The notes beneath the pieces were generated by a model. It saw nothing but the letters and a program-made list of their open reading frames with translations, had not been told where the DNA came from and ran no database searches. From positions 30,070,001 to 30,134,000 of the forward strand of contig OX597830.1 in the NCBI GenBank assembly GCA_951406725.2: a stretch of 64,000 nt of DNA, given 5' to 3'. This stretch comes from Octopus vulgaris (taxonomy: Eukaryota). Shown in pieces: positions 48,096 through 53,451 of this stretch. A program made the position numbers and the translations under genes. The stretch's first letter is position 1. Every line of letters starts with the position of its first letter.

Positions 48096-48595
48096 GTATA
48101 CATATCTATCCATATTTATATTTTACTACCACGAACATGTTTGTATGCAAACATATACACACGTTCACATACACTTACCGAAATATACATGGACACAAAT
48201 ACATACTTACATACACAGATACACATTCACTTAAGCGCATATACGCATTTGTATACAAACATATCATACATATATACAGGAGCAAAACCAGATATATACA
48301 CATGTATGTATATACACATATATATATAGCCAAGTATTGATGGAACGCTAAAAATTTAAAAGTTTCGTTAAGGAAATGTACTCCATAGGGTGAGAGAAGA
48401 AAAGGTATAGAAAGAGAGGTAAGAGGAAGAAGAGAAAACAAGGTAAAAAGAGGGGAGAGAGAGAGGAGAGAGTAACGAGTAAAATTGCATAGATAAAGGT
48501 AGAAAGAGAGAAAAAAAGGAGGAATAAATGTTATGGAAAGATAGAAAAATAAAGAAAAGATAATTTGCATGGTTCCGAGTTCAGTGTCACTACTT

Positions 48596-50133
48596 TTATT
48601 CATCAAATTTGCCATGAAGGCAGTACATAGATGTAGCTTTTGCGGGCTGGACGTAGACATTGATGGTATGAATGATGGTGATGGAACAAAGATGGTGTTG
48701 GGAGAAGACGAAAGCGCCCGCCGACTTCCGCTTCTCTAAGACAATGTTCTTTTTTCAAAAAATTCAAAAAGTCACAAAATTTCACAAAAGTCACAATGAG
48801 GCAATGAACCTCTTTCTCAATCTGATACAATTTTTCTATTTGAAACATTCAAAATGTTCAAGTAACCCGGCCGACCAGCACTATTGCTTCTTTGAGGCAA
48901 TCATTCTTTGTCAGGCCGTACCATGCAGGTATAAATTGAAAGGAGTCCTCCGGGAAGGACTTCACGATCCTGCACAGATCGCTATCCCATAGGACCTCCG
49001 CAGCCACCTGCGAAGGCCACTCAGGGTCCTCCGTGCAGGACCGAAGTCTCTCCCATTGGCCTCTCCTTTCCATTTCTCTATCTCGTTTTCAAGCGTTCCT
49101 CCTTTGTGGAAGAGGACCACATATTGATCCTCCGGCGGCACACCTGCCTGAGGAGACTTGGGAGGCGCCGTCTGCGTGTTACAATCCGCCGGCGGCGTCC
49201 CGTTTCTTTTTTTTTCCCTTTTTTCCCTGAGCCGCGGGAAAGTGAGGTTCCTGTGTTGCACACAATGGGTCCTCTCTTTCTCCCGCAGCTCCCGGGTTTT
49301 TCGGTGGGTCACCATTGTTGCCCATTTTTCGTTTTTTTTTTGAGTATGTAGCAATTTCCTCGTTCTGTTTCTCTCCCTCCATTGGGGGTGCAGGGAGAGA
49401 TTCCACCATTAACTGCTTCAGGATCCTACTTTGGTCCCTGGGGCAGTTCTTCTTAATGTGGCACAGGTGACACTTGGTGGGGGGGGGCGTCCCTCAAGCA
49501 TCACCGGATACCTGGACCCGGCCATCCTCAAGAAATCTGGAAAAACCAGACTTTTGGCTGATTGGGTCCATAGGGTCAAAACAGCTTTCGACCCTTCCCA
49601 ATCAGCCGTAGGCAACATTTTTACATTTAGCTGCTTGGCACTGCTACCACCCAGACCCCGGCGGATAGAGTCCTCTATCCACTCGGGCTCAACTCCGGGT
49701 GGTATGCCGCAGATCCAAGCCCTCAATAATTTTTCTCCCATATAGTTTGAGAGAAACAATATTTCTTTGCCCTCAAGGGGCTGGCTTGCAAAGTCGCAAG
49801 CTTCTTTTGGGGAGTCAAATAGCAATCAGACCGTTGCGTATTTCACTCCCCGTGAGATAAATTTAACGGCTGGCATGCAGTCCGCCAGCTCGTTTAAAAT
49901 TTGTGGCCTTCGGGAAGACGGCTATGGTGTCGAGCGACTTCGAATAAGTCCTCAACACCACGGTCTTCCTTTCCAGCTCTTTTAAATATTTTTGGGGAGG
50001 TGTTAGGTCCCACACAATAAATTCCTTTGCCATTTCGAAACGGAATCCAATTAAAGTTCAAAAGTGTAAGAAAATAACTAAGATACAACAGGGAGAAAGG
50101 AAAACACAACAGAAGAGAAGAATTACATAATTT
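48596..50133 (-). mobile_element. ORF1-only non-LTR retroelement (L1/Tx1-type ORF1; HAL1-like) bounded by a 16-bp TSD
   Basis: Exact TSD TTCAGTGTCACTACTT at 48580-95 and 50134-49. Inserted in the head of a family A SINE. Pyrimidine-rich 5' UTR, ATG at 50033, terminal AATAAA, and no RT or endonuclease motifs. Confidence 0.8.
48858..50033 (-). pseudogene. Disrupted LINE ORF1 (gag-like nucleic-acid-binding protein with zinc knuckle)
   Basis: Reads MAKEFIVWDLTPPQKYLKELERKTVVLRTYSK...LLFDSPKEA..F...LLRAWICGIPPGVEPEWI...FPDFLRMAGSRYPVMLEGRPP/KCHLC-HIKKNCP... across several frameshifts and a stop. Homologous to 52484-53295. Confidence 0.75.
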
Positions 50134-50545
50134 TTCAGTGTCACTACTTGCCACCTCGGGCACATGTCTTTTCTATGGCCTCGGAGCGACCAACATTTTG
50201 CGAGTGGCTTTGATAGACGGAAACTGAAACCGACCAATCATAATACACATAGATATGTTCGTGCGTGTGTGTGTATGAGTTTGTATGCGTGCGCGTCCCT
50301 ACGTGTGTATGTGTGTGTTTGTGCGTGCTTCTTTTCGTCTTTGTCTCTCTTTTTCTGTGGCCCTACCACTGCTTGACACCTGGTTTGTCCCTATTTTTGT
50401 CGTCGTAACCTAGCTGCTTAGCTAAAAATTTGCAATACAATAAGTACCAGACATTCAAAAGTAAGTACCGTTGTCGATTTACTAAACAAGACCATTCAAG
50501 GTGGTGTCCCAGCATGGTTGAAGTCCGATCAGTGAAAGAAATATT
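50134..50545 (+). mobile_element. SINE family A body (head fragment displaced to 48567-48595)
   Basis: GCATGGTTCCGAGTTCAGTGTCACTAC joined to TTGCCACCTCGGGCACATGTCTT rebuilds the family A head across the insertion. Confidence 0.85.
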
Positions 50546-50579: not shown

Positions 50580-51010
50580 GGCGGCGAGCTGGCAGAAACG
50601 GTAGCGCACGCCGGGCGAAATGCTTAGCGCTATTTCGTCTGTATTTACGTTCTGAGTTCAAGTTCTGCCGAGGTCGACTTTGCCTTTCATCCTTTCGGGG
50701 TCGATAAATTAAGTACCAGTTATGCACTGGGGTCGATATAATCGCCTTAATCCGTTTGTCTGTCCTTGTTTGTCCCTTCTATGTTTAGCCTTTTGTGGGC
50801 ATTAAAGAAATAAGAAGCCTTAGCACGCCGGGCGAAATGCTTAGCACTATTTCGTCTGTCTTGAGTTCAAATTCCGCCGAGGTCGACTTTGCCTTTCATC
50901 CTTTCATGGTCGATAAATTAAGTACCAATTGCGTATTGTGATCGATATAATTGACTGGCTCTCCCTCCCCCAAAATCCCAGGCCTTATGCCTAGAGCAGA
51001 TAAAAAAATA
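50580..51010 (+). mobile_element. SINE family B dimer with an alternative junction
   Basis: The second unit restarts at (AGAA)GCCTTAGCACGCCGGG rather than at GTATTTCG. Confidence 0.9.
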
Positions 51011-52044: not shown

Positions 52045-53295
52045 ACATTCTGTGACTTCATGTCATTTAACAGGGAGCCTTGTTTCCAAGGCGATCCCAA
52101 GCCACATACATTTATACAACATATTCTGAGCATGATCCTCTCGAAGGTTGCTTTACACACGAAAGGAAGACGAAAGAAAATGAAAGAGGGAGAGAGAGGG
52201 AGAGACAGAGTCACTTACTGTCCGAAAGTTGTTTGTCCTTCCCTTCAAAATCTTCTCCCAGGTTTTTTGTACAGTTTTTTAGAGTGGTATTTTTGAAATC
52301 TCCCAACTGCAATCGTGTAGAGAGATTTCAGTGTATTGTGTGTGTTCTGTGTTATTTGTATGATTTTAATATGTTGTGGTGGTGTTGTGTGTGGGTGATT
52401 ATTCGTTTTAATATCATTTTCTGTAATGCTGGTGCTTGACCTAATGCATTCCATTAGTTCTGGATTGTTAGTGTTTCTAGCTGTCAACATTTTTGGGCCA
52501 TTTGGTGTTCGTGTGTTTGTGATAATGCTTTTGTTTTCGACGGGTGTTTTGGTTTCGGGAGTGGTAAACCTCGCTGCTTTGTTTGTCTGCTTCTCAATTC
52601 TTTTTTCCCCTTTTTCTTCTTCCCCCTGTGTTTACTTACCAATTCTGTGTCGTCTTCACCTGACGACGCGTGGGAGGATTCAGAAAGTGAGAGGGGAAGA
52701 GTATTGGGATCTATTTCTGAGGGTGTTAATGTTGATTTTGTTGGTGTTAGTGCTTGTTGGTGACAGTTGGGATGTGGTGTATGGGTTTTGGGGGATGGAG
52801 TATGAGTCCTGTTGTTTTTCTCTTCTTCTTTTGGAGTTGTTGTTGTTGGTCGTGGTGGTGATGGTATTGTTTCTGTTCTTGGTGGCGCTGATGGTAGTGT
52901 CGTTTGGTTGGGCTGGCTTGTTGGTTTTATCAGTTGTGCATATGGCAGTGTGGGTAGCAGTGCTGGTTTATTTCTTGATTTTTGGTTTTCTTTTTGTGGT
53001 TGTGGTTGTCGTTCTTGTTGTTTCTGTTGTTGTTTCTGTGCTAATGGGCAATTGATTTTTAGGTGTGATTTGCTACCACAAACGTAGCAACGTGGCTTTC
53101 TGCCTTCGCCGGCCACATGCAAATTCGAACCGTCTGCCAGTTTGATAAGACGTGGAATCCTTTCAAAGCTGATTGGATCAACTTGAGCAAGGATTTTCAC
53201 TCCTTGGCAAATCTAGTTTTGCTGGACTAGGATAGCGACTTCCAAGATGTGGATTGCCTCCTCGATATCATAACAAATGGTAGACAAAGGCTATT
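52045..53295 (-). mobile_element. L1/Tx1-type LINE fragment: ORF1 C-terminal half plus ORF2 (APE) start
   Basis: ORF 52484..53200 contains GEGRKPRCYVCGSKSHLKINCP (CX2CX4HX4C). The ATG at 52133 gives MLRICCINVCGLGSPWKQGSLLNDMKSQNV, the APE domain I 'NV.GL' motif, which then runs into (CA)n. Confidence 0.85.
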
Positions 53296-53451
53296 TTATT
53301 TGTATCTCATTTTATTTTTGTAACCATACGACCAAGGTATGTAGGAATCATCATTAGGTCCTCGCATTCCAATGACTTCGTGGAGGGATCCTTGGCTCGT
53401 TCTTCACAGTCGAATGTAACTTCGATCATGGCATTTTTTTCCTCTGGTGAT

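Follow-up and report, generated by a model that had tools for sequence, protein, structure and literature searches.

A decayed ORF1-only retroelement in an octopus SINE, a likely member of a multicopy non-autonomous LINE family

The insertion and its host SINE

The window, by which we mean the whole 64-kb stretch of Octopus vulgaris DNA analysed here, carries a retroelement insertion on the minus strand within a tRNA-like SINE (Table 1). The initial annotation had described an exact 16-bp target-site duplication (TSD) around 1,538 bp, and both duplications were found: TTCAGTGTCACTACTT is exact on either side, encloses a distance of 1,538 bp and has no further occurrence in the 64-kb window. 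About 6e-5 extra copies of this 16-mer are expected from base composition, which rules out a chance repeat. The host SINE had also been said to rejoin across the duplication. With an intact SINE copy of the window as reference, the left piece corresponds to SINE positions 33-57 and the right piece to positions 46-142, and their overlap is confined to the duplication, as claimed.

Contigs from 4 of 24 listed public sequencing runs were aligned to 48476-50235 at 80% likeness. X2 and X6 are DNA runs, and X14 and X18 are RNA by guess, as no run carrying the element was listed as RNA. The 5′ junction is crossed by a 557-nt contig of X2 (depth 21.7, 0 differences) and by a 547-nt contig of X6 (depth 55.1, 2 differences), the 3′ junction by a 287-nt contig of X6 (depth 46.7, 0 differences). 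Since these junction contigs cross it at single-copy-like depth, the insertion is real and present under two organism labels. Its explanation as an assembly artefact is ruled out by the junction contigs in X2 and X6. A second copy of the 1,538-bp element was not found within the 64-kb window. ARAGORN detected no tRNA genes in the window, and an Rfam scan of it gave 25 matches, none of which reached the gathering score and nearly all of which lie in microsatellites. Two adjoining pieces of a second SINE family, which may resemble a Nin/Deu-type octopus SINE, come next after the host SINE at 50580-50990.

Table 1. Features of the insertion locus (positions in the window)
Feature	Position	Strand	Evidence
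Host tRNA-like SINE, left piece including duplication	48567..48595	+	Alignment to intact window SINE
TSD, 3′ side	48580..48595	-	X6 record 23; first 6 bases of the TSD (to 48590) align in other copies too
ORF1-only retroelement copy, dead, 1,538 bp	48596..50133	-	Multicopy across all 25 interior depth bins
3′ UTR, 262 nt, ends AATAA(A), without poly(A)	48596..48857	-	Terminal 175 nt strongly multicopy
Presumed ORF1 C-terminal part to TGA 48858-48860	48858..49211	-	GC 0.50-0.62, multicopy; coding status putative
Basic, low-complexity ORF1 linker	49212..49442	-	Aligns with P0002 residues about 205-280
CCHC zinc knuckle, broken in window copy	49443..49472	-	12-nt loss at 49460/49461, frame break before knuckle
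Second RRM-like domain of ORF1	49484..49735	-	Fold search, P0002 residues about 103-186
ORF1 start and first RRM-like domain	49736..50033	-	tblastn with P0002; fold search, P0002 residues about 14-102
Leader / candidate 5′ UTR, possibly partial	50034..50133	-	70/100 pyrimidines
TSD, 5′ side of element, AAGTAGTGACACTGAA in element sense	50134..50149	-	Junction contigs X2 record 22, X6 record 30
Host SINE, right piece	50134..50229	+	76-78% identity to three intact window copies
Target motif GTGGC/AAGTAG (cut after C)	50144..50154	-	10/11 identical to SINE-head GTGGT/AAGTAG

ORF1, leader and 3′ end of the insert

The ATG at 50033 aligns with the start of the closest homologue, the O. sinensis protein LOC115225585 (P0002; 75% identity over 141 aa). 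A tblastn search with P0002 gave a match from this start to about 49212, across frame breaks, and in the second RRM region (49481-49732) 71 of 84 residues are identical. HMMER returned 47 matches for ORF1 among 1.84 billion representatives; ten relatives were looked up, and seven of these are named octopod proteins and three are unnamed. ORF1s of this type carry annotation as uncharacterised octopus genes. In one gene model, P0016 (O. sinensis XP_029639579.1), an integrase core follows 45 residues that match the beginning of ORF1 in this family at 64% identity; the fusion is probably an annotation artefact of nested elements.

An RRM plus a CCHC knuckle had been expected in ORF1, and both the structure model of P0002 and the Pfam zf-CCHC matches of its relatives bear this out. 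With the AlphaFold model of P0002 (mean pLDDT 81), Foldseek gave 117 matches at E 0.001 or better to tandem-RRM proteins, with low TM-scores of 0.2-0.4. VIA-align placed mostly RRM domains on residues about 14-102 and about 103-186, with Z values of up to 8.9 and 8.0, respectively, and an rmsd of 2-3 Å, so that RRM proteins predominate in both fold searches. zf-CCHC was matched at E up to 0.1 in 8 of the 14 relatives scanned, with four matches passing the Pfam cut-off, and Transposase_22, the ORF1 type of mammalian L1, in none of the 14. The ESM Atlas search led to CCHC and ZCCHC3-type RNA-binding clusters. The predicted layout of the closest homologue is thus two RRMs followed by a CCHC-type knuckle. 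In P0002 and in four X2 contigs, Phe replaces the first knuckle Cys (KFH), with loose ends at 49481 (X14) and 49482 (X2). This suggests that the KFH relatives may form a subfamily with an altered zinc knuckle.

The insert is a dead copy. Frame breaks, one of them near 49900, and an in-frame stop (49826-49828) in the region of the first RRM-like domain interrupt ORF1, and 12 nt are gone between the second Cys and the His of the knuckle. These 12 nt are retained in 38 contigs of X2 and 31 of X6, which have loose ends at 49460. The initial annotation had proposed a whole, now disrupted ORF1 with a zinc knuckle. The homology upholds this from 50033 to about 49212, except that the knuckle of this copy has lost its 12 nt, whereas the stretch from 49211 to the stop scored in none of five tests. 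It was missed by a profile HMM, 44 of 100 shuffles scored at least as high in hhalign, the protein and atlas searches were blank, and its codon-position bias was not significant (7/15 third positions, p 0.20). The stretch is nevertheless plausible as the end of ORF1; by eye it resembles the C-termini of octopod relatives, a likeness that HMM, hhalign, searches and codon bias left unsupported.

Selection on ORF1 was assessed with X14 record 3, which differs from the window copy at 42 of 252 bases without gaps. The test takes this record as coding for P0002 on the basis of its two loose ends, which translate to the 10 residues flanking that region in P0002. Only 13 of 84 residues differ, compared with a mean of 26-28 in neutral simulations, and in each of three transition settings none of 20,000 simulations reached 13. 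ORF1 thus appears to have evolved under purifying selection, which could date from an autonomous ancestor.

The reported pyrimidine-rich leader of about 100 nt was confirmed, with 70 pyrimidines in 100 nt. Depth at 50069-50127 is about 2-3 times that of the junction contigs, and repeats in this part are skipped by the aligner. X14 record 6 and X18 record 12 extend about 930 nt past the start of ORF1, and these extensions show no alignment to the leader of the window copy. They may be flanking host sequence or part of a much longer 5′ UTR; in the latter case, the window copy is 5′-truncated. At the other end, a 3′ UTR of about 260 nt with a stem-loop and a terminal AATAAA had been described. 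The length holds (262 nt), and AATAAA is present at 48600-48595, except that its last A comes from the duplication; a poly(A) tail was not found at the 3′ end of the element. The stem-loop is unsupported by folding: the 3′ region folds no better than shuffled sequences (z -0.17, 78 of 200), and a hairpin at about 48700-48736, which was chosen post hoc, gave a z of -1.85 (8 of 200 shuffles).

Also in agreement with the initial annotation, the unit carries no recognisable enzyme. None of eight frame pieces of the window matched reverse transcriptase or endonuclease families in Pfam, where only weak chance matches were obtained, and at most about 615 nt remain 3′ of the confirmed ORF1 homology in the window copy. 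In the 262 nt past the ORF1 stop, neither an endonuclease start nor a same-sense match to the ORF2 start of a neighbouring LINE was detected. This neighbour, about 3 kb away (window about 52050-53450, minus strand; profile E 5e-24), is a LINE fragment with an ORF1 of the same type but more diverged, and it has an intact CCHC knuckle. Behind its ORF1 (about 53450-52200) come a short spacer and then about 30 codons, which presumably resemble an ORF2/endonuclease start, before a (CA)n repeat cuts the fragment off; the fragment may serve as a reference for the canonical ORF1-then-ORF2 layout. When this 40-aa ORF2-like start was used as a query, no candidate ORF2 protein was obtained, and it had no match in Pfam or among PDB sequences. 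Metagenome, viral and prokaryote collections gave no locus.

Copies of the element in public sequencing runs

Many copies would be expected if the insert belonged to a family, and a single copy had been named as the result that would speak against one. Along the unit, 2,484 contigs of X2 and 3,229 of X6 were aligned. Over 25 interior bins, the ratio of summed depth to junction-contig depth had a median of 172 (range 14-1,238) in X2 and of 238 (range 8-1,973) in X6; these are rough ratios rather than copy numbers. Depth lies above that of the junction contigs over the whole unit, and a single copy is excluded. Among the loose ends listed, other 3′ junctions were observed in 10 contigs besides the window copy. 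At most 41% of the element 31-mers occur in any public run, though the junction contigs match exactly; such a low share is expected because repeats are fragmented in assembly. The runs that carry element 31-mers bear four organism labels.

The contigs also show ORF1 joined to the same 3′ end in other copies. The three 3′-terminal bins reach 0.94 (X2) and 0.82 (X6) of the mean of the ten ORF1 bins. A large excess of 3′ depth would be expected from full-length LINEs with the usual 5′ truncation. In X6, a joint from 48763 to 48843 at depth 420, belonging to other copies, crosses the region that links the end of ORF1 to the 3′ UTR, and further joints among those listed run from 48760 to 48792, from 48811 to 48909 and from 48830 to 48974. 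X18 record 9 spans 48590-48863 with 19 gaps. X18 record 12 (2,478 nt) differs at 43 positions in 244 nt of ORF1, which corresponds to about 82% identity. Its knuckle-side piece starts at record position 887, and a joint to 48749 occurs at the same depth; the joint was assigned to this record through the equal depth (29.3) and not via a listed piece. The gap between knuckle and 48749 is at most 852 nt in this record compared with 641 in the window copy, a distance into which an ORF2 cannot fit. A contig across the entire unit was not present among the pieces listed. We consider it probable that this multicopy element represents a non-autonomous, ORF1-only family.

A different reading, which we regard as unlikely, takes ORF1 and the 3′ end as the opposite termini of an autonomous Tx1 LINE. 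The 1.5-kb form would then be a minor by-product of internal deletion, amplified to a few copies, and its own ORF1 would be unselected. Depth does dip at 48771-48888. It is lowest at the link between ORF1 end and 3′ UTR (48771-48829), at about 14 (X2) and 8 (X6) times junction depth; the weakest ORF1 linker bins of X2 lie at 46-55 times. Against this, the depth-420 contig bridges the dip, and the dip region is rich in indels, as the 19 gaps of X18 record 9 illustrate, which lowers mapping at 80% likeness. X18 record 10 diverges right past the ORF1 stop, where its alignment ends at 48861 with 41 unaligned letters beyond, and a further 784 loose ends, 12 joints and 5,840 pieces lie beyond the listing and may include continuations from ORF1 into ORF2. 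The roughly 82% identical copy, however, shares the short layout, and the 3′ end is not over-represented relative to ORF1. A homologous ORF1 with an ORF2-like start behind it lies 3 kb off, and the purifying selection on ORF1 could be inherited, both of which would fit an autonomous LINE.

Target site, origin and known relatives

A listed 3′ loose end of X6 lies at 48590, six bases inside the duplication, and comprises 10 contigs. The 10 nearest loose letters of these contigs are the reverse complement of the SINE head right after AAGTAG; over 30 letters the ten contigs agree at 0.57, and the farther letters fit the SINE loosely. X18 record 9 was likewise aligned as far as 48590. The window copy occupies a different place, in antisense orientation within a diverged SINE, and its empty site reads GTGGC/AAGTAG compared with GTGGT/AAGTAG in SINE heads. 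In the window, GTGGYAAGTAG occurs five times, namely in four SINE heads and at this site, whereas 0.05 occurrences are expected and AAGTAG has 30 sites in all; with one mismatch allowed, 6 were found compared with 1.5 expected. The GTGGY pattern was written after the site had been seen, and its register was fixed independently via the X6 junctions. The hexamer AAGTAG alone is an unlikely target: SINE heads account for only 4 of the 28 other AAGTAG sites, and with so few they would not be expected to prevail in a consensus of ten. No 3′ ends of other elements abut AAGTAG in the window. This SINE-head signal is a new observation, absent from the initial annotation. A criterion for target preference given in passages of PMC4494074 is that over 20% of flanks lie in one target. 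Judging from the junction sequences, a Tx1-style preference for GTGGY/AAGTAG in the SINE head is fairly likely.

The junctions could also derive from an ORF1-only family in which one master copy was amplified together with its flanking SINE head, with no target preference at the level of the enzyme, an explanation that we consider very improbable. Ten contigs are few and may stem from a smaller number of insertions, and 11.6% of the O. vulgaris genome consists of SINEs (PMC13282606). The window copy, on the other hand, is a separate insertion in the other SINE strand with a motif match on both sides of the cut. Additionally, GTGG lies outside the duplication, and GTGGY was found at none of the 24 other non-head AAGTAG sites in the window.

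Our preferred reading is that the insert likely belongs to a non-autonomous family copied by the ORF2p of a full-length Tx1-type LINE, which likely cuts at GTGGY/AAGTAG in the head of an abundant tRNA-like SINE. A master copy would first be transcribed; related contigs are present in X14 and X18, the two runs guessed to be RNA. Judging from its fold and from purifying selection, the ORF1p of the element itself would coat the RNA, and a partner ORF2p may then recognise either the terminal ~175 nt, which are conserved, or a short A-tail. The endonuclease would nick the bottom strand at TACTT/RC, prime reverse transcription and leave a 16-bp duplication; the duplication is observed, and the nick position is that suggested by the standard target-primed model. 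L1-type endonucleases nick at a pyrimidine-purine step, as in TACTT/RC. The window copy would have landed at a sequence resembling the motif, on the antisense strand of a SINE that had diverged, and would have decayed afterwards, in line with the observed site match and ORF1 breaks.

The family itself likely originated by internal deletion of ORF2 from a Tx1-type LINE. As its alternative to an ORF1-only family, the initial annotation had offered reverse transcription of a LINE mRNA whose poly(A) site lay prematurely behind ORF1. This would fit the AATAAA at which the unit ends but is hardly tenable, since the 3′ end is common to many copies stopping at the same place and neither an endonuclease start nor a same-sense match to the ORF2 start of the neighbour was seen in the 262 nt past the stop.

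Assignment of the element to the Tx1 type can be made with fair confidence. No ORF2 was obtained, and the assignment is drawn from the type of ORF1, the length of the duplication and the behaviour at the target. The RRM plus CCHC layout found here is that of Tx1 ORF1s and is not unique to Tx1; sections of PMC5203782 describe this Type I ORF1 as consistent with Tx1. Candidate partners exist, as 13 L1-Tx1 families have recently been active in O. vulgaris, where their 421 insertions cover 2.29 Mb and recent copies average about 5.4 kb (PMC13282606, Table 1). Passages of PMC4494074 report that Tx1 elements often prefer set targets, other transposons included: Tx1L inserts into Tx1D, Keno into U2, Kibi and Koshi into microsatellites and Tx1-Mar into Mariner-N4. 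The octopus element resembles these in its apparent preference for multicopy targets, including non-autonomous transposons, and its 16-bp duplication has the same length as that of SINEU-3 in the same source. It differs from the target-specific Tx1 elements, which are autonomous, and from SINEU, which does not encode protein. Those passages name no Tx1 element limited to ORF1 and no target in a SINE head.

Of the features that mark an ORF1-present non-autonomous LINE, a TSD-flanked retrotransposed unit, a LINE ORF1 and the lack of ORF2 in the unit were observed here. Others would be many copies of one short layout at independent sites, selection on ORF1 within the ORF1-only lineage and an autonomous partner with the same 3′ end. 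The element likely works like HAL1, HeT-A and TRE5-A.2, as a non-autonomous LINE of the HAL1/HeT-A kind in a host group and a clade that are both new for it. HeT-A inserts at telomeres and has a length of several kb, and HAL1 was reportedly treated in work by Bao and Jurka in 2010. Like the octopus element, mammalian HAL1 is non-autonomous, encodes ORF1p only and belongs to the L1 superfamily (parts of PMC5753468 and PMC5786205). HAL1 derives from mammalian L1 and has an ORF1 of the Transposase_22 type (section of PMC5203782), whereas the octopus element has a zf-CCHC and a two-RRM model in its place and is thus not HAL1 proper; with its RRM-RRM-CCHC order, its lack of poly(A), its apparent target motif and its mollusc host it is distinct. 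HeT-A of Drosophila (Jockey) and Ag-Sponge of Anopheles (CR1) are, as here, ORF1-present bipartite non-autonomous LINEs (passages of PMC5786205); they belong to other clades, and the octopus element is distinguished by a 16-bp duplication at an interstitial motif. TRE5-A.2 of Dictyostelium also lacks ORF2, and parts of PMC5633606 describe it as mobilised in trans by TRE5-A.1 and targeted near tRNA genes. TRE5-A selects its sites by position, some 50 nt upstream of tRNA genes, whereas the octopus signal is a motif inside a tRNA-like SINE head.

Passages of PMC5786205 name ORF1-only LINE derivatives for three clades, Jockey, L1 and CR1, to which TRE5-A.2 adds a further case (PMC5633606, in part). 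The portions of the literature compared yielded no description of ORF1-only LINEs from cephalopods or from the Tx1 clade, nor of targeting to a SINE head; they also took in PMC9115989, PMC12988792, PMC3414825 and PMC8967140; Repbase, Dfam and curated octopus libraries may already contain the family. A term search for ORF1, HAL1 and non-autonomous in the main text and one supplement of PMC13282606 was negative. Since the kind of element is already known, the gain is a variant rather than a new principle.

A more far-reaching version can be put forward tentatively, at somewhat less than even chances: an old ORF1-only Tx1 lineage with hundreds of copies, subfamilies about 18% apart, its own RRM-RRM-CCHC protein under selection, a borrowed reverse transcriptase and homing to SINE heads. 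If a large octopus family is confirmed, it would extend the ORF1-only strategy to a Tx1-type element and to molluscs and, within the portions of literature searched, would be the first ORF1-only derivative in either. Such a family would lend itself to asking why ORF1 is retained by an element that is not autonomous, either for cis packaging of its own RNA or for competing for a partner ORF2p. A SINE-head target, if true, would add a new class of safe haven to Tx1 targeting and predicts that insertions inactivate SINE promoters. If the old SINE-homing lineage is real, it would represent a protein-coding LINE parasite that nests in another non-autonomous element.
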